From Escherichia coli (lineage in GTDB: Bacteria; Pseudomonadota; Gammaproteobacteria; Enterobacterales; Enterobacteriaceae): DNA of 64,000 nt. Location of the stretch: assembly GCF_003334255.1 (NCBI RefSeq), contig NZ_QOWU01000022.1; one strand, given 5' to 3'. This document shows, in pieces, positions 27,760 to 64,000 of the stretch. Numbering within the stretch: the stretch's first letter is position 1; each line of letters starts with the position of its first letter. A program made the position numbers and the translations under genes. The notes beneath the pieces were generated by a model. The model searched no databases. It saw only the letters and a list, made by a program, of their open reading frames with translations, and was not told the origin of the DNA.

Positions 27760-28039
27760 TACCGTTGTCTCTCGTCCAGGTTTACTCCTGATAGAAAGTC
27801 ATCGGCATTTGACGGTAATTACTTACGACTAAAAGCCTCTTTGCGTCACATTTTTACAACAATTATTGCAGAGAAGATTAATGCTATTGGAATGAAGAGA
27901 GTAACGAATGGCTAAACCGAATGACGAAAAATTCTGGAAAACAGCACGCAATTTCGTGAAGTGATTATTTCGTCCCTAAGGAAACCTCATAGGATGCCTG
28001 CGGGTGCCTGAGACTTTCTGTTTTCAGGCTAACCGGGAA

Positions 28040-28089
28040 TCAGAAAGACGAAGGCCCAGACCGATATTTCTATCAACCGAGGCCAACGA

Positions 28090-28105
<16 letters not shown>
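28040..28105 (-). ncRNA. sokB: Putative SokB antisense RNA (position approximate)
   Basis: Inferred only from hok/sok architecture (antisense to the mokB start region); not delimited from sequence signals. Confidence 0.3.
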
Positions 28106-28297
<192 letters not shown>

Positions 28298-28542: not shown

Positions 28543-28786
28543 ATAACCTCCATGGTTTATCGAATCTTATGTTCGATTTGAACGTTATACGCTGGTTTAT
28601 TTTGATACCGTTGATGAGATCAAAGATCGGGTGAATTGATTAAAAATAAGGCAGATGGACGTATGGGCAAGGATTATGGTTTTATTTGTCATACAAATAA
28701 ATATAATAGGCGCTTCCGATGTAGACCCGTATTCTTCGCCTGTACCACGGGTCGGTTTTAGTACAGGCGTTTTCTTTAAATATCCT

Positions 28787-29317
28787 TCAAGAACGTTTAC
28801 GCGGCATCATGCGTAGAAGTGTGTTGTCCTTCCAGAAATAGTGGTGTGCCAGTGCAGCCGCAGCGTGCAACCCGATGACAAAATATCCCAGATTCGCCAG
28901 CGTCTCATGCCACGACTTTAAGCTATCTACCCGTTCGAAATTGGCCTCTGAAGCGAAAGGCATCGTCAAACCAAACGCAAACCACGGGTTGCCCCGGTTA
29001 TACATCATCACCAAACCAATCACTGGCAGCGCAATAAACAGGAGATAAATCACCAAATGTCCCAAATGCGCCAGTCCCGTCATCATCGGTTTTGGCTTAG
29101 GTATAATCGGCGGGGTCGGGTATTTCAGCCTTAACAAAAGACGAACCACCATCAGCACGAGAATTGAGATGCCGCAGGAAACATGAATCATGTTGATGAG
29201 CGGCCGATCGCTACGTGGGAAGAAACCCCGAAACTCCATTGCGCAATACGCTGCGATAACCAGTAAAAAGACCAGCCAGTGAATGCTGATTTGTAACCTT
29301 GAATATTTATTTTCCAT
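28787..29317 (-). CDS. cybB: Cytochrome b561
   Basis: ORF 28787..29353 trimmed to MENKYSRLQISIHWLVFLLV. Confidence 0.85.
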   Translation of the reverse strand: MENKYSRLQISIHWLVFLLVIAAYCAMEFRGFFPRSDRPLINMIHVSCGISILVLMVVRLLLRLKYPTPPIIPKPKPMMTGLAHLGHLVIYLLFIALPVIGLVMMYNRGNPWFAFGLTMPFASEANFERVDSLKSWHETLANLGYFVIGLHAAAALAHHYFWKDNTLLRMMPRKRS

Positions 29318-29505
29318 AACATTTCCTGCTTTAACATAATTTTCCGTTAACATAACGGGCTTTTCTCAAAATTTCATTAAATATTGTTCACCCGTTTTCA
29401 GTACGTTACGTTTCACTGTGAGAATGGAGATTGCCCATCCCGCCATCCTGGTCTAAGCCTGGAAAGGATCAATTTTCATCCGAACGTTCCTGACAGGAGA
29501 AAACC

Positions 29506-30507
29506 ATGAGTAAAGTTGGTATTAACGGTTTTGGTCGTATCGGTCGACTGGTGTTGCGTCGATTACTTGAAGTCAAAAGCAACATAGACGTTGTCGCTAT
29601 TAATGATCTCACTTCCCCAAAAATTCTCGCCTACCTGCTGAAACATGATTCAAACTACGGACCATTCCCCTGGAGCGTTGATTTTACGGAAGATTCACTT
29701 ATCGTTGATGGGAAAAGTATCGCGGTTTACGCCGAAAAAGAGGCTAAAAATATTCCGTGGAAAGCGAAAGGTGCAGAAATCATTGTCGAATGTACTGGCT
29801 TTTATACCTCCGCCGAGAAATCGCAGGCGCATCTTGATGCTGGTGCGAAGAAGGTGTTGATTTCCGCCCCTGCCGGTGAAATGAAAACTATCGTTTATAA
29901 CGTCAATGACGACACTCTGGATGGCAACGACACCATTGTTTCCGTGGCGTCATGCACCACTAACTGTCTTGCGCCGATGGCCAAAGCCTTGCATGACAGT
30001 TTCGGGATAGAAGTCGGCACGATGACGACCATTCATGCCTATACTGGCACCCAGTCACTGGTGGATGGCCCGCGTGGTAAAGATTTACGTGCTTCACGCG
30101 CCGCGGCAGAAAATATCATTCCCCACACTACGGGGGCGGCAAAAGCCATTGGTCTGGTGATACCGGAACTGAGCGGCAAACTGAAAGGTCATGCGCAACG
30201 CGTACCGGTGAAAACAGGTTCGGTCACTGAGCTGGTGTCCATTCTCGGAAAAAAAGTGACTACCGAAGAGGTGAATAACGCACTTAAACAAGCAACCACC
30301 AATAACGAGTCATTTGGTTATACCGATGAAGAAATAGTCTCTTCCGATATCATTGGCAGCCATTTCGGTTCGGTGTTTGATGCCACGCAAACGGAAATTA
30401 CCGCCGTGGGCGATTTACAACTGGTGAAAACGGTCGCCTGGTACGATAACGAATATGGCTTCGTCACGCAGCTTATTCGCACCCTCGAAAAATTCGCTAA
30501 ACTCTGA
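29506..30507 (+). CDS. gapC: Glyceraldehyde-3-phosphate dehydrogenase C, intact
   Basis: Uninterrupted 333-aa GAPDH ORF (NGFGRIGR, catalytic ASCTTNC). Confidence 0.9.
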
Positions 30508-30514
30508 CGCGCAC

Positions 30515-30545
30515 AGGCGGAGGAAAAAACCTCCGCCTCTTTCAC
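30515..30545. terminator. Bidirectional hairpin between convergent gapC and aldA
   Basis: aggcggagg-aaaaaa-cctccgcct followed by T-run. Confidence 0.7.
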
Positions 30546-30548
30546 TCA

Positions 30549-31988
30549 TTAAGACTGTAAATAAACCACCTGGGTCTGCAGATATTCATGCAGGCCATGT
30601 TTACCATCTGCGCCGCCAATACCGGATTTACGCCATCCGGCGTGGAAGCCTTGCATAGCTTCGAAGTTTTCACGGTTGATGTAAGTTTCACCAAACTTCA
30701 GCCCTTTAATGGCTTTCATCGCGACGTTCAGATTTTGGGTATAGATTGATGAGGTCAGGCCGTAATCACTGTCATTAGCCATTGAGATAGCATCTTCCAG
30801 CGTGTCAAATGCGACAACTGGCAGCACCGGGCCAAAGGTTTCCTCATGCATAATCGACATTTCCTGGCGAACATCCAGCAGCAATGTCGGCGGATAATAA
30901 TATCCTTTCCCCTCTACCGCTTTGCCACCCAACGCCACTCTCGCCCCTTCTTCTACTGCGCGCGCCACTTTTTGCTCGACCCTTTCCAGCGCCGCGGCGT
31001 TAATCAACGGCCCCATCGCAATGTCGTTGCGTTCAGCGGGGTTACCAAATTGAACCGCCTGCATCGCTTCACCCAGCCGATTGACGAACTGATCATAAAT
31101 GCCTTTCTGTACATAAACACGTTCTGCACAGTTACACACTTGCCCACTATTAATGACGCGTGAATCAACGATGGCTTTGACTGCCAGTTCAAGATCGGCA
31201 TCGTCCATTACGATAGCTGGTGCTTTACCACCCAATTCCAGACACACTTTAGTGATGTTTTTCGCCGCAGTCGCCATGATCTTCTCACCTGCAGAGACGC
31301 TGCCTGTCATACTGACCATTGCGACCTTTGGGTTACCCGCCAGTTCTTGCCCAACGGTTTCACCACGCCCCAGAACAAGGTTAAACACGCCGCGCGGAAG
31401 GCCTATTTCATCGACGATTTTGGCGAATGCAATCGCATTGTTTGGCGTAAATTCACTGGGTTTAATGACGATGGTATTACCGGTCAAAAGAGCGGGAGCC
31501 ATTTTGCGGGCAATGAGGAAGAACGGGAAGTTCCACGGCAGAATGCCGGTAGTCACGCCAAGTGCACGTTTAAACAGAAGAATATTTTCTCCTGGACGAT
31601 CGCTTTGAATAATCTCGCCCTCGTAACGCCGTGCCCACTCCGCCATGTAATCGATATAGTCCGCAGTAAAAGCCACTTCGACTTCAGCCAGCTGCTGGAT
31701 CTTGCCCCCTTCTTCAACAATCAGCGCACTGATTTCACTGGCGCGTTCGCGGATCCCGGCGGAGATTTTGCGCAACCAACTGGCGCGTTCAATGGCAGGC
31801 AACGCTTCCCATTCTGGTTGTGCACGTTCTGCTGCATCGATTGCCTTACGGGCATCCTCGGCCTGACCATCGGGAATGCTGGAAATGACAGCCTCTGTAG
31901 CAGGGTTTACCACATCAATCCATGCGTCTCCACGCCAGGTAACAAACTGTCCATCAATATACATAGGATGTTGAACGGGTACTGACAT
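30549..31988 (-). CDS. aldA: Lactaldehyde dehydrogenase
   Basis: 479-aa aldehyde dehydrogenase ORF. Confidence 0.9.
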   Translation of the reverse strand: MSVPVQHPMYIDGQFVTWRGDAWIDVVNPATEAVISSIPDGQAEDARKAIDAAERAQPEWEALPAIERASWLRKISAGIRERASEISALIVEEGGKIQQLAEVEVAFTADYIDYMAEWARRYEGEIIQSDRPGENILLFKRALGVTTGILPWNFPFFLIARKMAPALLTGNTIVIKPSEFTPNNAIAFAKIVDEIGLPRGVFNLVLGRGETVGQELAGNPKVAMVSMTGSVSAGEKIMATAAKNITKVCLELGGKAPAIVMDDADLELAVKAIVDSRVINSGQVCNCAERVYVQKGIYDQFVNRLGEAMQAVQFGNPAERNDIAMGPLINAAALERVEQKVARAVEEGARVALGGKAVEGKGYYYPPTLLLDVRQEMSIMHEETFGPVLPVVAFDTLEDAISMANDSDYGLTSSIYTQNLNVAMKAIKGLKFGETYINRENFEAMQGFHAGWRKSGIGGADGKHGLHEYLQTQVVYLQS

Positions 31989-38015: not shown

Positions 38016-40986
<2,971 letters not shown>

Positions 40987-44594: not shown

Positions 44595-47500
44595 TTAGAA
44601 CGTTTTCTTAAAGTTCAGCATCACGCCTTTATCGCTGATACCGTCCTCTTTCCAGTGGTACGCGTCCAGATTCAGCGAACTTTCTTTGCTGCTGTACTTC
44701 ACGCCGACGCTTGCCAGGCTATTGATGCCGCCGCCCTTCTGATCGTCATCGACGTTAAAGTGCTGGCTGCCTGCGCCTGCCAGGCTTGCCGTGCGCTGGC
44801 TCTTCGCGTAGCTCAGGTTCGGCCCGCCTTCCAGCGTGGCGTTCGCACTCCAGCCGTCTTTTCCTGCATAATCCAGCTTCAGCCCGACGATGCTGTCCAC
44901 CGCCGTTTCGCTGCCGCTGTTCATGCTCAGGTTAAAGTCTCCGGCATTGCGCTCCTGATAGCCACCTTCCAGTGTGTGACGCAGTTTTACACCCGCATAT
45001 GGCGTAACCTTCAGTCCTTCGCTCGGTTCGAAAGTCTTCGCTCCTTCGCTACGGAACTCCAGGTACTGCTGCTTCACGTCGGTATCAGCCGTTTTGTTCG
45101 TGTTGCTAAATGCAATCGAGCGGCTGCTGTCAAGGTTGTGAACGTCATAACGCAATGCGTTATTCCAGTTCATGCCGTTGTCGAAGGACATCTGATGTTT
45201 CAGGCCAAAGAACTGGCTGTAGCCACCGGTGACGCCATTATCACCCGCTTTCTGCGCACCGTCGCCATCCAGACGCGCGATACCGTACTCCAGACTCATG
45301 GTCTGGCTTTCGCTCAGGTCGATGGTTTTACGCAATGCCAGCATGTCGTATTCGGTATTATTACCTAACTCGGCACGCGGATCGCCTTTCGCGACAACGT
45401 TGAACGCCAGACCGTTGCCCACTTTCGGCGCGGCATCCGCCAGCATACTAAAGCGGTTGCTTAACACGCGCGCTTCGCGGAATACCGTGGTTGCCTGGCT
45501 ACCGCTGACCTGTTTCAGAGCGCTGTTCAGTTCAGCAGTCGTGCCGACGTTCAGGCTGGTAAACAGTTCGTTGTTGGTGTAACTCGCATCCAGTGCTTTC
45601 GCGATGTCATTCACCGAAGCATCAGTCGCCACATCGGTATAAGCATTTTTGCTCATGGTGATGTCAACGTTACCGCTGGCATCGGTGCTGCCTTTAGCAG
45701 TCCATACCACGGACGTTGAGGTGATGGCATCCGCATCGGTCAGGTTGCTGCCCTCCACCACGTTATCAAAACTAACGGTGGTGTCTGCGGTACCGGCGGT
45801 AAACCCGGTGTTGATCCCCACGCCGTTCATGCTGGCATTGTTGACCTTGAGCTTACCGGCGCTGCCATCGGCACTCGTTCCCACCACGTAACCGTTGAGA
45901 TTATTCATGCCGTCGTCACTGCTCACGGACGATGACGAGCTACCGCCGCTATAAGGCGTAATCGTCGGCTCATCCGGCGCGGTGAAGTCCACATAGTGCG
46001 CTTCTGTGCCGTCGCCGCCTTCGCCGTTGCCTTCTGCCGAGATACCACTTTGTTTGAAGATACCGGAACCCGTCACGCTGTCGTCGATATACACGATACC
46101 GTTGTTAACGATATGTCCAGCGCTGCCTAACTGGCTGAATGCAAAAGAATCACTGGCGTAAATATTGATGGTGCCATTATTTTCAATGACCGCATCCGCC
46201 TTCGCGTTGCTTTCGAGTTGCATCCCTACCATGCCAGTCTCAGAGGTGCCTTCTGTGCCGACGTTAATGATATTGTTGTTGACCATTTTCGCGCTGCCAT
46301 GCGCCGACATCGCCACATTACCAGTGTTGTCAATATTAATAGTACCGTCGTTCACCACCAGCGTGTTAGCGTTCACGTTCAAGGCAGTCTTGATTTGACC
46401 GTTGATTACGCCCGTCTCACCGTTATAAAGGGTGTGTGGATTGCCAGCGGCCATAATATTAGCGTCACTGTTAACCGTGCCCCAGTTATTAAATGAACCC
46501 GCCCACAATTGACCGTCATCAATTGTTGCTACACCGCCTTGCAGGTTGTTGAATACACCCTTTTTATCCACGGTGACATGATTGACCGTTCCGGCGTTAT
46601 TGAACGTTGATGCAGCAGTAAAAAAGACCTTATCTACCGTTCCACCTGCCTGGTTGTTCATGACGGCAGACACCGATGAGCCTTTCCAGTTGCTCACCGT
46701 TCCGGTGTTATAAACAGCGCTGGCCCACTGTTCGATACTACTAATAGTGCCAGCATTGTTGATGACCGAACCCGCAACTGTCGTAACTACCTGGCCTGTA
46801 ACTGTGCCTTCATTATTAAAGACGCCGCCATCAACAGAAACGGATTGAGTTATCCCCTGGTTGATATATTCACCGTCAATGGCGATAACCACCTTGTTGA
46901 TATTACCCGTGATTTCGTTGGTCAGATTGCCATTATGAGCAACCGTAATGGCTCCGCCCGTCACCGTTCCTGCGTTGGTGATATAAATATCGCTCTCTGC
47001 CAGGGGGTTGGTTACCCCTCCGCTTGTGGGTAAATCCAGCGTTTCGCCTTCAGCGGTAATAACGTTGCCATTATCCCATCCCCGGCTGACGGCACTGTCG
47101 GTCGGGTTATAGCTCGCACTGTCCTGACAAATACCGAACGTGCAGATAGTGCCGTAGTTAACAATAACGCCGGAACCGTCATTGTAAAATGCCTGACCAA
47201 TTTCGGCATTAATATTAATAACGCCAGTCTGATCATTAATTGCGGTTCCGCCATTGTAAACCGCCATACCGACGAGTTTATTCGCGCCAATCGTGTCGTC
47301 ATAGTTATCATTTTTTTCCAGGTTGATAGTCCCCTGGTTAATGACCGTATTGCCATGACCATTAGCGAACATTCCCGCGCCGGCATTATAGATAGTAATG
47401 ACACCGCCTTCTTTATTAATTGCGGTTGCGTTAACTCTGGGGCCGTTAAAATCATCTGTGCCTACCCACATGCCAGCGGCATAATCTCCGGCTCTATTTC

Positions 47501-50300
47501 CATGTATATCGCTGCGTAATTGCGTTGTATCATTAGCATCAACCCATAACGCATCGATAGAGATATTGCCTGCATTCTCAGCCGTCGAGTTGTCTATTGC
47601 CGTCATGCCAATGTTCCCTCGACCATACATATCAATCACGCCACTCTCACCATTGAGTGCATAACTGTTATGGTAGGCTTCGAGAGCAATCATACTCTCC
47701 GTTTGATTATTCGGAATATCACTGCCAGTAGCACCCACGGAGTTTCGCATATTCACCACGCTATACTGCTCCATAACTTTTGCTGTGATGAATCCATTAT
47801 TTGTAACCGTAGCGCCTCCTTGCGCCATTAGCGCTACCCCACCCGGTTCCGGGACTGGATTTGTCGGTGTCGAATAATCATACTGAAGTAATGCGATGCT
47901 GCCGCTGTTAACCGCCGAACTGTTTTCATCGTTGACATTAATAAATTTAATATTCGCTACATCGACATCCCCTTCATTGATGACCTGGGAACCGGAAGAC
48001 GCATTTATTATCGCAGGAGTCGCATCAAAATAGTGTTCGAATATATTGACATCCTTCGTTGAAAAAGAGGCATCATCGCCTATCTTCAACATTGCACCAT
48101 CATTCAACTGGATAATACTGGAGTAACCTACCGGGAAATCACCGCCTATTACCGAGTCACCATTCAGGTATACGGATGAGTTGCCATCAACCTTAATAAG
48201 AGGAGTGGAGCCGCTTCCCTTACGTGCGGAGGCAATATCCTCTCCGTTGGTTAAGGTATTTGCCTCTCCCCTGAATTGCACGCCACCATTAAGTGCTACC
48301 GTATTACCATCACCCGTGATCACCAGTCCGGAGATGTTTTCCTGGCTACCGTCAAAACGTGCATAGGTACGATTCGTGGTTTCGCTATCCACGACCATCG
48401 TTAACTGACCATCCAGTGTAATATCATTATTATCACCGCTGACATTAACGCCAACGGATGGGTCGTAAAAATATTCTGCCGCATTATCAGCCAACTGGTT
48501 TTTATCGACCAGTATATTGCCGGCGATATCGATGGTATTCCCGTTCCCGGCGACATTGACCCCTGTCGCATCCTGTCCGGTGACGTTCAGCTCATAGGTG
48601 GCCAGCGTCATAGTGTTATTATTGCCAACCACATCCAGACCTGTGGAGAAATCACCCACATACATACCACCCGCAAGTGAGATATCGCCAGCGTCGCCAA
48701 TAACCTGAACTCCCGTCCCTGCATTGCTGGCAGAAATATCACCCACGTTCATAAACGTGGCGTTATCCCCCGCAATCTTCACACCTGTGGCATTCTCTTC
48801 CGCATTGCCATTGCTGGCGGAAATATCACCCATATTGATAAATGTGGTGTCATTACCCTGCAACTCAATGCCAATGGATTTCTCATCCACGACGGTTATA
48901 TTGCCTTTATTGCTGATAATGGTGCCATCTCCATCAACAATAATTCCACGTGCGCCACCGCTTACATAAAGATCGCCTGATTGTTTAACCAGTGCATCGT
49001 TACCGGTAATTTTCGACCCCGTCGAATGTTCTCCGTCGACGGTCATGACACCTTTATTACTTACTACCGCGTTGTCGCCATTAATCTCGCTGCCGGTCCC
49101 ACCATTGGTAAACGTCGAGTCACCCGCGGTATTCAATGTCGCGCGATCGCCATTGATAATAACCGCCGTCCCGCCATCAACTTCCGTTTCACCATTATTA
49201 TTGATGGTGATATCGTCGCCGGTCAGGATACCGACCACTGAGCCTTCGCCAATTGCGGTGGTTTTACCGTCGTTATTAAGGGTTATATCGTGACCGTCAA
49301 CAACCATCACCGTGCCACCATTCAGCGCGGTATTTCCACCCTTATCGGTGATGGTGGCATCGTTAACCTGGAAATGGTCACCTGTAGTTCCATCAGCAAC
49401 CGTACCCGCCTCTTTGACAATATGGATTTTGCCATCGTCATCATAACGCCAGGTGATCCCGCCCGCCGTATTGACGCCGTCAAAGCTGACAGTGTTGGCC
49501 GCCTCGTCAACGGACCAGGTTTTTACAATCGTCGTTTTGCCATTTGGCCCGGTAAGTGTGTAACTGCCGTCTTCATTTTTAGCGTAGGTGAAGGTGGTAT
49601 TACGAATTTCTACGGTCTTCGCATCCTGATCCCAGGTGACATTATTTTTATAAACGACAGGATCGTGTTTGACTGGGGTGTCATCACCATCGTCGTCCGG
49701 GGTATCGTCACCATCATCGTCCGGTGGTACCGGGGTGTCACCGCCATCGTCCGGTGGTACCGGGGTGTCGCCGCCATCGTCCGGTGGGACCGGGGTGTCG
49801 CCGCCATCGTCCGGTGGTACCGGGGTGTCACCGCCATCGTCCGGTGGCACCGGGGTGTCGCCGCCATCGTCCGGTGGGACTGGTGTGTCGCCACCATCGT
49901 CCGGTGGGACTGGTGTGTCGTCGCCATCATCCGGCGGTACCGGGGTGTCGCCGCCATCGTCCGGCGGTACTGGTGTGTTGCCGCCATCGTCCGGCACCGG
50001 AGATGGATCGTCGTGATGGTGATTATTATCATCGTGGAGTGCATACACCGCTACGCCTGTTGCCACCGCAGCCAGGCCCACTGCAGCCCAGGGTAACAAC
50101 TCACTATCTTCAGCTGATTTACACTCTGCTGGCAGCTTTTCTAACTGTTCTTTACTCAGTGATTTAATATTGACCGGGCAGCTAATCTTGCTGGATTTAC
50201 GAGACTCATCCGATGTTTCCGCTATCGACGTATCTGCTGCCCAGGTCTGGCTGCTTAACGCCATTGCAACACAGACACTAAGCATTTTTTTCCTTTGCAT
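44595..50300 (-). CDS. ydbA: Giant autotransporter adhesin-like protein YdbA, uninterrupted
   Basis: Single 1901-aa ORF: signal peptide, Pro/Asp-rich decapeptide repeats, long Gly/Asn/Thr-rich passenger, C-terminal beta-barrel ending ...LNFKKTF. Confidence 0.85.
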   Translation of the reverse strand: MQRKKMLSVCVAMALSSQTWAADTSIAETSDESRKSSKISCPVNIKSLSKEQLEKLPAECKSAEDSELLPWAAVGLAAVATGVAVYALHDDNNHHHDDPSPVPDDGGNTPVPPDDGGDTPVPPDDGDDTPVPPDDGGDTPVPPDDGGDTPVPPDDGGDTPVPPDDGGDTPVPPDDGGDTPVPPDDGGDTPVPPDDDGDDTPDDDGDDTPVKHDPVVYKNNVTWDQDAKTVEIRNTTFTYAKNEDGSYTLTGPNGKTTIVKTWSVDEAANTVSFDGVNTAGGITWRYDDDGKIHIVKEAGTVADGTTGDHFQVNDATITDKGGNTALNGGTVMVVDGHDITLNNDGKTTAIGEGSVVGILTGDDITINNNGETEVDGGTAVIINGDRATLNTAGDSTFTNGGTGSEINGDNAVVSNKGVMTVDGEHSTGSKITGNDALVKQSGDLYVSGGARGIIVDGDGTIISNKGNITVVDEKSIGIELQGNDTTFINMGDISASNGNAEENATGVKIAGDNATFMNVGDISASNAGTGVQVIGDAGDISLAGGMYVGDFSTGLDVVGNNNTMTLATYELNVTGQDATGVNVAGNGNTIDIAGNILVDKNQLADNAAEYFYDPSVGVNVSGDNNDITLDGQLTMVVDSETTNRTYARFDGSQENISGLVITGDGNTVALNGGVQFRGEANTLTNGEDIASARKGSGSTPLIKVDGNSSVYLNGDSVIGGDFPVGYSSIIQLNDGAMLKIGDDASFSTKDVNIFEHYFDATPAIINASSGSQVINEGDVDVANIKFINVNDENSSAVNSGSIALLQYDYSTPTNPVPEPGGVALMAQGGATVTNNGFITAKVMEQYSVVNMRNSVGATGSDIPNNQTESMIALEAYHNSYALNGESGVIDMYGRGNIGMTAIDNSTAENAGNISIDALWVDANDTTQLRSDIHGNRAGDYAAGMWVGTDDFNGPRVNATAINKEGGVITIYNAGAGMFANGHGNTVINQGTINLEKNDNYDDTIGANKLVGMAVYNGGTAINDQTGVININAEIGQAFYNDGSGVIVNYGTICTFGICQDSASYNPTDSAVSRGWDNGNVITAEGETLDLPTSGGVTNPLAESDIYITNAGTVTGGAITVAHNGNLTNEITGNINKVVIAIDGEYINQGITQSVSVDGGVFNNEGTVTGQVVTTVAGSVINNAGTISSIEQWASAVYNTGTVSNWKGSSVSAVMNNQAGGTVDKVFFTAASTFNNAGTVNHVTVDKKGVFNNLQGGVATIDDGQLWAGSFNNWGTVNSDANIMAAGNPHTLYNGETGVINGQIKTALNVNANTLVVNDGTINIDNTGNVAMSAHGSAKMVNNNIINVGTEGTSETGMVGMQLESNAKADAVIENNGTINIYASDSFAFSQLGSAGHIVNNGIVYIDDSVTGSGIFKQSGISAEGNGEGGDGTEAHYVDFTAPDEPTITPYSGGSSSSSVSSDDGMNNLNGYVVGTSADGSAGKLKVNNASMNGVGINTGFTAGTADTTVSFDNVVEGSNLTDADAITSTSVVWTAKGSTDASGNVDITMSKNAYTDVATDASVNDIAKALDASYTNNELFTSLNVGTTAELNSALKQVSGSQATTVFREARVLSNRFSMLADAAPKVGNGLAFNVVAKGDPRAELGNNTEYDMLALRKTIDLSESQTMSLEYGIARLDGDGAQKAGDNGVTGGYSQFFGLKHQMSFDNGMNWNNALRYDVHNLDSSRSIAFSNTNKTADTDVKQQYLEFRSEGAKTFEPSEGLKVTPYAGVKLRHTLEGGYQERNAGDFNLSMNSGSETAVDSIVGLKLDYAGKDGWSANATLEGGPNLSYAKSQRTASLAGAGSQHFNVDDDQKGGGINSLASVGVKYSSKESSLNLDAYHWKEDGISDKGVMLNFKKTF
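49670..50000. repeat. Tandem 30-nt coding repeat array (about 10 copies) inside ydbA
   Basis: Repeated ggtgtcaccgccatcgtccggtggtaccgg units encoding (T)PVPPDDGGD. Confidence 0.85.
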
Positions 50301-50701
50301 ATGAAATTCCTCATAAATAGATGATTACGCAGCCCAGATAAACTGCACAGGGTTAAATAGTTACAAACATTCGAAATCTGGATATTGTTTTTAACAGAAT
50401 AAATATATTGATTTAGCGAATATATTTATTCATTAAGTCAATATATTTATTCTTTAATTTATATTTTTAACGCATTTATTTCAACATAAAATATGGCGTA
50501 GTTGAGATTAAATCCGATAATACCTATGAATTAAATAATACAAGTAATTCATGTGGTAAATAAATCATCATGTTAATGAAGCATTTCTTATCGGCATCTA
50601 TATGAAATTAAATAAAAAATAATTCTCAATAGTATTACAGTTATTATTGAATGTTTCAGGAGGTACAACCAGACAGATTTTTCTCGACGAATACCGAATT
50701 A

Positions 50702-51025
50702 TTATTTTTGCAACCACATCCCGTTTATCCCGCGAATGTATTCTCCCGGCTTAGCTTTTGCTACCAGTTTCTGCCCAGCCAATTTTTCCACTTCTGCAAC
50801 CGGCAAATTATTTTTTATGGCGAGTTTTTGATAGCTCTTTTTACGCGATTCATTAATCGTTTTGACTAACATCTGTGTTTCGGTATCCGCCTTTAATGCA
50901 ACCAGATAACCATTATACGTTTCGCCAACACGCCCCTGAGTTCGAGCGTCATCCAGCGTCAGCGCCATCGCACTGGCGTTAAATAATGCATTAATGACAA
51001 AACACAGCATTAAATTTCTCTTCAT
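50702..51025 (-). CDS. ydbL: DUF1318-family periplasmic protein YdbL
   Basis: ORF 50702..51106 trimmed to MKRNLMLCFVINALFNASAMA. Confidence 0.75.
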   Translation of the reverse strand: MKRNLMLCFVINALFNASAMALTLDDARTQGRVGETYNGYLVALKADTETQMLVKTINESRKKSYQKLAIKNNLPVAEVEKLAGQKLVAKAKPGEYIRGINGMWLQK

Positions 51026-62399: not shown

Positions 62400-62666
62400 G
62401 AAAACAGAAACCTTTATTAGTCGGTAAGCAGTTTGGGTGCGAGATGGAATGCAACAGTAATACGTGCTGGTATTCGCCGCCGTAATCCGTACCATACGCA
62501 ACATACTTTTGCCTGCTTACTGTTGACGATTTGAGCGAACCCGGCATTTATATTCAGCCAGACGGGGGATGAAACTGCGCAGATGGTGTATGAAGTGTAT
62601 GCTAATTGGATAGAAAACATGAACAATGAACAAATAGATTTTTTGAACAGAAAGCTATCATCGTGA
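62400..62666 (+). pseudogene. Decayed 3' end of a tyrosine recombinase (integrase) gene
   Basis: Own translation: ...IRAGIRRRNPYHTQHTFACLLLTI*, then in another frame ANPAFIFSQTGDETAQMVYEVYANWIENMNNEQ; no intact N-terminal region. Confidence 0.5.
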
Positions 62667-62751
62667 TGGCTCCTTAAAAAAGACTAAAAAACACCACGAA
62701 TATAGCGCATTACATATTAATGCAGGTGACGTAATGCCACCTACAATGATC

Positions 62752-64000
62752 TTAAGCATCACTCTTGTCTCGAGGTTCCTTTAGATTCAGAACTCGGATC
62801 AATCCATCATGTATTTTATATTCATCAGAATCAATAAACCCTTGTGAAGGGTAAAAACATTTATAACGCCAAATTGTAGACTGACCAACTTTAAACCCAA
62901 TCAATGATATATCGAACATAAAACGTATCTGTTCATTGATCAATTCAGTATTATAATTAGCATCTATTTTTTGCAATTCAGTAACCAGTTCATTCTTAGT
63001 AAAAATTGTAGATGAATGATTCTGTATAGCAGAAAGAAGTATTTTTATTTCAGGGCGCTGAACCGCCCATTCATCATTGATTTCCTGTTTTAACCACTCT
63101 GAGTAACTTGGCTCAGCCTGGTAAATATATTCAACCTCCAACTTATCACCAACAAAATCATTATCTGAGAACGGATCGTTTTTATCATCGCGCATGGAAC
63201 TAATTGTTTTAGTTAATAAACATATCATATCGCGAGGACGCATCATCGAGCGCTTCATCAGATAATTAAAAGGTTTTGCACGCTGCCGCATCTCATGACG
63301 GTCAAAAAGTTCATCAACATCATGAACTAGATCTTTATTTACATTGGCGGCATAATAATTTATTCTTTGGAGAAGCATCTTCATTAAAGTTTCTCTACTC
63401 CAATGAAGAAGAGCCCCGCAATCCTCTCGAAGTTTATTAGAGTCATTCAAGCTCAATACTTCGAATATATCTTCTCGCAGAAAAATCAAAGGTCTAATGT
63501 TACCATTATATTTTGGGGTTATGGCATCAGCAGCGGTGACTAACCCTGCTATAACCCTTCTCGATACATCGACTGAAATTTCATCCCATGCTTCGTCTAT
63601 ACGATCAAAACAAACAAAAACTTTTGCATGCATTGGTTGGCTACTTCGGAGACAATTTTCAAAGTAATCAATTAAATGATCAATATTATTACATAACTTA
63701 TCACGTAAGTCGGGATCATTCGAAGCGGATTCGAAATTTACTTCGCCTCCATCTAACTCAAGGGAATTCAAGTCACCGTCAGATAAATCCAAACCAGCTT
63801 TTGGCAAAGAAATTTTTCCTAAACCCAGTAACTTCCTCCCCACTAATACAGAAATAGAAGGGAATGGTGTATCAAAAATTTTCTCCAGTGCAACTTTAGC
63901 ATTTTTTAATGGTTTAGGTATTGGGTGATGCTGCCAACTTACTGATTTAGTGTATGATGGTGTTTTTGAGGTGCTCCAGTGGCTTCTGTTTCTATCAGCT
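62752..64000 (-). CDS. Uncharacterized protein, 5'-truncated by the window edge, in AT-rich accessory DNA
   Basis: ORF 62752..63843 stays open in frame to base 64000 (own translation of the upstream 157 nt); stop TAA at 62752-62754; AT-rich composition unlike flanking core genes; no confident family assignment. Confidence 0.6.
   Translation of the reverse strand, partial: ADRNRSHWSTSKTPSYTKSVSWQHHPIPKPLKNAKVALEKIFDTPFPSISVLVGRKLLGLGKISLPKAGLDLSDGDLNSLELDGGEVNFESASNDPDLRDKLCNNIDHLIDYFENCLRSSQPMHAKVFVCFDRIDEAWDEISVDVSRRVIAGLVTAADAITPKYNGNIRPLIFLREDIFEVLSLNDSNKLREDCGALLHWSRETLMKMLLQRINYYAANVNKDLVHDVDELFDRHEMRQRAKPFNYLMKRSMMRPRDMICLLTKTISSMRDDKNDPFSDNDFVGDKLEVEYIYQAEPSYSEWLKQEINDEWAVQRPEIKILLSAIQNHSSTIFTKNELVTELQKIDANYNTELINEQIRFMFDISLIGFKVGQSTIWRYKCFYPSQGFIDSDEYKIHDGLIRVLNLKEPRDKSDA

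Follow-up and report, generated by a model that had tools for sequence, protein, structure and literature searches.

An intact gapC in Escherichia coli that probably encodes a functional accessory glyceraldehyde-3-phosphate dehydrogenase

The gap family of Escherichia coli includes GapA, the housekeeping glycolytic glyceraldehyde-3-phosphate dehydrogenase (GAPDH), which alone supports glycolysis in K-12, and Epd, a paralogue with a changed substrate that acts as an erythrose-4-phosphate dehydrogenase. The protein closest to the one described here has already been characterised as EcGAPDH1 (PDB 7C5F and 13 related entries; UniProt P58072 for O157:H7), and it is the product of the same gene at the same locus. 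EcGAPDH1 oxidises D-glyceraldehyde-3-phosphate (D-G3P) with NAD+ and phosphate, with a wild-type Km for G3P of 0.73 mM; the C150A replacement abolishes activity, H177A lowers it approximately 8000-fold, and crystal complexes are available with NAD, G3P, the thioacyl intermediate and 1,3-bisphosphoglycerate (1,3-BPG) (PMC8615399). Because these assays were run at pH 10 and 50 °C (PMC8615399), they say little about the physiological role of the enzyme. In K-12, the orthologous position between cybB and aldA is occupied by a pseudogene (gapC_1/gapC_2, b1416/b1417). A qPCR test on urine also relies on gapC to identify the species E. coli, with reference to UniProt P58072 and Hidalgo et al. 1996 (PMC10614358), and an older transfer of gapC has been stated (PMC1796617). 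Earlier work reported environmental isolates with an intact gapC as opposed to laboratory strains with a mutated one, and two papers cite Espinosa-Urgel and Kolter (Mol Microbiol 1998). That intact alleles stand against a pseudogene in K-12 has been published knowledge for over 25 years, and the intact gapC that we describe is an already known, ordinary E. coli form with nothing novel about it.

The gene lies in a stretch of 64,000 nucleotides of E. coli DNA (contig NZ_QOWU01000022.1 of assembly GCF_003334255.1), referred to here as the window. The gene, its signals and its two neighbours are located as follows.

28787-29317, minus strand: cybB, the upstream neighbour of gapC
29495-29499, plus strand: Shine-Dalgarno sequence AGGAG, from direct reading, 6 nt 5' of the gapC ATG
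29506-30507, plus strand: gapC coding sequence, an intact type I GAPDH gene; open reading frame from ATG to TGA, 333 codons plus TGA
29953-29955, plus strand: codon TGC of Cys150, the catalytic nucleophile, in the SCTTNC motif
30034-30036, plus strand: codon CAT of the catalytic His177
30549-31988, minus strand: aldA, the downstream neighbour, convergent with gapC

The gapC frame has no internal stops in the open reading frame listing of the raw sequence. The gene order trg-hokB-cybB-gapC-aldA-ydcF-hrpA is the same in K-12 and in the other E. coli genomes inspected, and the exceptions to the order cybB-gapC-aldA were the IS1-rearranged strain SCPM-O-B-7615 and a B-type strain with IS1 between cybB and gapC. 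The gene has the position that defines the orthologue group, being chromosomal, located between cybB and aldA, and convergent with aldA. The copy in the window is the intact, ancestral allele of a chromosomal E. coli gene. Our main reading, to which we give a probability of roughly 0.93, is that GapC is a functional accessory NAD-dependent phosphorylating GAPDH with a sigma-S-dependent promoter, where its expression and role in this strain are what we infer. The basis of this account is the integrity of the reading frame, the protein family, the catalytic and cofactor residues, the near-identity to EcGAPDH1, purifying selection and synteny.

The composition of gapC (48.1% G+C, GC3 49.1%) resembles that of the window (49.2%) and of the immediate neighbours (48–51%). 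Recent horizontal acquisition was considered and rejected, as composition gave no sign of it relative to the window or the neighbours. Open reading frames of 65–75 aa that overlap gapC in other frames were taken as chance frames within a conserved coding gene. No Rfam match to a structured RNA was found within or overlapping gapC, and the only matches were two RNAs upstream of cybB.

28002-28153, plus strand: sok antitoxin RNA of the hokB/sokB locus, Rfam score 101 bits, upstream of cybB
28713-28776, plus strand: small RNA RydC, Rfam score 92.5 bits, just 5' of cybB

As the K-12 reference we used the orthologous sequence from RP437, a derivative of K-12, in which the "gap" gene between cybB and aldA is annotated by PGAP as a pseudogene ("frameshifted; internal stop"). 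Global pairwise alignment of the two genes revealed 10 substitutions and one 1-bp indel; nucleotide identity is 98.9%. The lesions of the K-12 copy fall at the following two sites.

29620, plus strand: K-12 nonsense site; A in the window (AAA, Lys39) and T in K-12 (TAA), in both the pairwise and the multiple alignment
30249-30255, plus strand: K-12 frameshift site; A7 in the window and A6 in K-12, with the frame shifted after codon 250

The K-12 copy also carries the missense change R18G (window position 29557), where the window keeps R18. With K39*, A7>A6 and R18G, the K-12 gene yields no full-length protein, whereas the window has none of the three, and base-by-base alignment with RP437 disclosed no premature stop or frameshift in the window gene. 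An earlier note on this DNA had described gapC as an intact gene of 333 codons that keeps the catalytic Cys motif, in contrast to an interrupted pseudogene in K-12, and had proposed alignment with the K-12 gene as a check. That alignment has now been run and finds both K-12 lesions absent from the window, which confirms a single continuous frame of 333 codons with neither stop nor frameshift relative to RP437. The pseudogene status of the K-12 copy is borne out by the PGAP annotation and by the aligned lesions, and the motif SCTTNC, starting at residue 149, is retained together with Cys150.

To place the allele within the species, the 1002-nt window gene was used as a query against 5426 complete E. 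coli genomes. The locus was matched in 5418 of them, at least 80% of the query was covered in 5410, and the best full-length matches had identities of 95.9–100%. The top match was strain G1/2 (healthy human, Germany), which is 100% identical over the 1002 nt and whose annotation records gap as an intact CDS (WP_000048670.1). Short diagnostic sequences were counted as exact haplotypes, so that the figures are lower bounds: the window 61-mer around codon 39 occurred in 3222 of the 5426 genomes, the K-12 61-mer with the TAA stop in 1152 (21%), and the K-12 89-mer with A6 in 1035 (19%). A window 61-mer across the A7 run (30222–30282) gave no megablast match, presumably because of low-complexity masking or word size, and was replaced by the 89-mer. 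We also opened 15 genomes drawn from an evenly spaced ranking of the whole-gene matches outside the K-12-type block, and every one (15/15) had an intact 333-aa gap CDS. The K-12 lesions were not confined to laboratory strains and also occurred in isolates from nature (chicken, pig, pigeon, human and wastewater). A second functional GAPDH can probably be made by about four in five E. coli genomes. It had been suggested that an intact gapC marks the strain as non-K-12; this is true, but the marker is weak, because the K-12 stop haplotype is present in approximately 21% of genomes, natural isolates included, and the majority of the species has the gene intact.

Five hits in the E. coli set were labelled as plasmids, and a plasmid-borne gapC was rejected as an explanation, these being mislabelled chromosomal sequence. 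The E. coli "plasmid" records with gapC in the plasmid collection were either 4.8–4.9 Mb in size or chromosome-like sequences of 250–385 kb, and all were typed as non-mobilizable. The same collection contained two Pantoea megaplasmids of approximately 0.5 Mb with a gap gene that is 74% identical.

The regions that flank gapC contain a putative promoter and a hairpin.

29318-29505, no strand assigned: divergent intergenic region between cybB and gapC, the putative gapC promoter; 188 bp, 40% G+C
30515-30538, no strand assigned: 9-bp G+C-rich hairpin AGGCGGAGG-AAAAAA-CCTCCGCCT, between the stop codons of the convergent genes gapC and aldA

The intergenic region is identical to that upstream of the K-12 pseudogene at 187 of 188 positions. 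In K-12, a ChIP-seq peak of sigma-S RNA polymerase lies between gapC_1 and cybB (PMC4447067), and the gapC-1 and gapC-2 transcripts rise when growth on glucose is slow and fall when rpoS is inactivated (PMC2759082). The hairpin has a predicted RNA folding energy of -18.5 kcal/mol (z = -3.55 relative to shuffled sequences) and probably acts as a transcription terminator shared by gapC and aldA; a simple terminator scan did not call this hairpin because of its short T tract.

E. coli can dispense with the gene, and the species has lost it repeatedly. In strain OkiPb01697, a 2-bp deletion at codon 44 represents an independent lesion, and in SCPM-O-B-7615 an IS1-associated deletion has removed the greater part of gapC together with the 3' end of aldA (IS1A at L009 2755–3452). 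The B-type strain T7Express has IS1A between cybB and an intact gapC (L010 250–947), where it probably separates gapC from its native promoter. IS1A has struck the gapC locus twice, in different ways, in T7Express and in SCPM-O-B-7615. In strain ETEC1717, gapC (L015 301–1302) carries the K-12 changes R18G and K39* together with an intact A7 run, and resembles an intermediate stage on the way to the decayed K-12-type pseudogene. The presence of the stop codon with A7 in this strain suggests that the frameshift arose after the nonsense mutation.

These independent inactivations (the K-12-type stop and frameshift, the 2-bp deletion and the IS1 deletion), along with the sufficiency of GapA for glycolysis in K-12, are what would be expected if gapC in the window were intact yet silent or cryptic, in the process of decay and without contribution to fitness. 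To quantify selection on the gene, we aligned 16 alleles and applied Nei-Gojobori counting. The 9 distinct intact alleles differed only synonymously at 59 codons and in the encoded amino acid at 9, and pairwise dN/dS values relative to the window allele were 0.025–0.067, with dS of up to 0.17. Such low dN/dS values indicate that GapC has been kept by long-term purifying selection and is not a neutral relic, and they extend over distant lineages such as O157:H7, APEC O1 and others. The intact state of the gene in all 15 of the sampled non-K-12-type genomes also speaks against a cryptic gene, as does a promoter that is conserved and that is bound by sigma-S polymerase in K-12. We consider it quite unlikely that gapC is cryptic in this strain, and retain the reading of a functional accessory GAPDH.

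The predicted protein falls within a well-defined enzyme family. GapC scored 446.9 bits against a cut-off of 367.2 with the NCBIfam equivalog model of type I GAPDH (TIGR01534), its residues 3–325 covering positions 1–330 of the 330 in the model, which places it among the members of this family. The Pfam domains Gp_dh_N (PF00044, NAD-binding) and Gp_dh_C (PF02800, catalytic) were matched at full length, at residues 3–102 (E = 2.3e-35) and 155–313 (E = 2.1e-57), respectively. Scores fell below the cut-offs of the GapA-type model NF011954 (300.7 against 662 bits), the Epd/GapB models NF010058 and TIGR01532 (279.5 against 539 and 275.3 against 530.55), and the model of the ArsJ-associated GAPDH, NF033735 (306.4 against 450). 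GapC and GapA are paralogues that belong to one fold family and use the same chemistry, and they have in common the SCTTNCLAP active site, His177 and NGFGRIGR; they differ in locus and regulation and are 46% identical (K-12 GapA). GapC resembles Gram-positive-type GAPDHs more than GapA does. The GapC/Gap1 proteins of Staphylococcus and Streptococcus (3K73, 4QX6) were the next-best solved relatives after those of E. coli, with full-length matches of 409–480 bits; the relationship of these proteins from other organisms to E. coli GapC is one of family and not of orthology.

At the level of individual residues, we examined the cofactor, substrate and phosphate ligands that are named in the EcGAPDH1 structural paper. 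The cofactor-binding residues R11, I12, D34, K78 and S120 are all present in GapC with the same numbering as in EcGAPDH1, as are the phosphate and substrate ligands T151, T180, T182, T209, G210 and R232, the catalytic C150 and H177, and the GxGxxG-type nucleotide-binding motif NGFGRIGR. All catalytic, NAD-binding and phosphate-binding residues are identical between the two proteins. The best match in the PDB was 7C5F, an E. coli "glyceraldehyde-3-phosphate dehydrogenase" that is identical at 332 of 333 residues over the entire length of 333, and the sole difference is T253 in the window against A253 in the crystallised protein. The A253 protein (WP_000048667.1) is the allele of B/BL21-type and many other strains. 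Among 11 intact sequences (9 distinct alleles), Thr253 (ACC, window 30262–30264) occurred in the window and strain G1/2 only; the rest have Ala253, as does the crystallised protein. From its identity at 332 of 333 residues to the active EcGAPDH1, the window allele would be expected to oxidise G3P in an NAD-dependent manner. An enzymatic assay of the cloned gene, which the earlier note had proposed, has in effect been published already for a protein with a single residue changed. The same note had counted GapC as a potential third GAPDH isozyme; it is the third member of the gap family after GapA and Epd/GapB, but only the second true GAPDH, because Epd is an erythrose-4-phosphate dehydrogenase.

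An identity to GapA of just 46%, and the precedent that Epd sets for a change of substrate within the gap family of E. coli, might point to a GapC that has diverged to another specificity, whether Epd-like, NADP-dependent, non-phosphorylating, or that of an arsenate-resistance GAPDH. However, the scores are far under the Epd and ArsJ-associated cut-offs and over that of type I GAPDH, and Asp34, a residue typical of NAD-specific enzymes, is present. In addition, the protein with 332 of 333 residues identical uses D-G3P, NAD+ and phosphate and has been crystallised with NAD, G3P and 1,3-BPG, and no arsJ adjoins gapC, the neighbours of which are cybB and aldA. A changed specificity is therefore extremely improbable, and a phosphorylating, NAD-dependent GAPDH is the reading that we carry forward. 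It is hardly credible that the apparent intactness of gapC is an artefact of sequencing or assembly, for example a miscall in the A7 homopolymer: although one of the K-12 lesions is a change in homopolymer length, a classic site of error, the K-12 TAA substitution is likewise absent from the window, the 1002 nt are identical to those of the independently assembled complete genome of G1/2, and A7 is found in all intact alleles sampled except that of APEC_O1, which has a synonymous A>G inside a run of the same length.

Other parts of the window also differ from K-12. The earlier note had paired gapC with an intact ydbA as a sign of a non-K-12 strain, and at the level of the open reading frame this claim holds.

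44595-50300, minus strand: ydbA-type autotransporter gene, a continuous 1901-aa open reading frame without IS2 or IS30 insertions
39322-40986, minus strand: ynbA-ynbB-ynbC region, partly deleted

In K-12, insertions of IS2 and IS30 break ydbA into two annotated fragments, and the termini of the continuous 1901-aa frame in the window match both of them: the signal-peptide-like N-terminus is homologous to that of the K-12 N-terminal fragment, and the C-terminal residues are the same as those of the C-terminal fragment. In G1/2, ydbA is annotated by PGAP as a pseudogene in two pieces. The window is not G1/2 itself: over 16.8 kb downstream of gapC the two differ by one mismatch, and beyond this by an indel of approximately 240 nt, which falls in a repeat array (period 30 nt) close to the 5' end of ydbA (window ~49,700–50,000). 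The block feaR-feaB-tynA-paaZ-paaABCDEFGHIJK-paaXY, which spans approximately 19 kb in K-12, is absent at window ~50300–50940, and ydbL lies approximately 0.6 kb beyond ydbA. In the ynb region of G1/2, the PGAP annotation has a ynbC-like gene without its N-terminus and a ynbA-like gene without its C-terminus, and ynbB is gone; in the window, a 556-aa open reading frame with a TTG start spans the deletion junction. After uspF (window 62449–64000), G1/2 has a degraded site-specific integrase fragment and then a Sll1717-family P-loop ATPase, and this region looks like the edge of an inserted island.

Taken as a functional enzyme, GapC would be an NAD-dependent phosphorylating type I GAPDH (EC 1.2.1.12), a homotetramer in the crystal, that would convert glyceraldehyde-3-phosphate to 1,3-bisphosphoglycerate by way of a thioacyl intermediate on Cys150, with His177 acting as the base. 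Transcription would most likely start from the conserved cybB-gapC promoter and depend on sigma-S, and may thus be expected under the conditions of stationary phase and carbon limitation, and in fresh water by published report. GapC would then be an accessory GAPDH for slow growth or environmental conditions, and not the main glycolytic enzyme. It is conceivable, as a more tentative extension that we think somewhat doubtful, that GapC is a condition-specific, sigma-S-dependent enzyme for stationary phase, low temperature or fresh water, perhaps acting in the gluconeogenic direction, and that selection keeps it in most E. coli for life outside the host. This idea dates back to 1998 and does not concern this window in particular. 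If it is true, loss of gapC, as in the K-12/ST10-like lineage, through IS1, or by small deletions, would mark lineages in which that phase is relaxed or GapC is costly.

Beyond correct annotation, the significance of the intact gene is small. The population pattern is species-wide, is in the databases already and is not specific to the locus in the window. With respect to gapC, K-12 is the exception, and metabolic models or annotations carried over from it would erroneously leave out a second functional GAPDH. The gene is a tidy example of an accessory gene that is dispensable and yet conserved, being under strong purifying selection in most lineages and subject to repeated independent loss.
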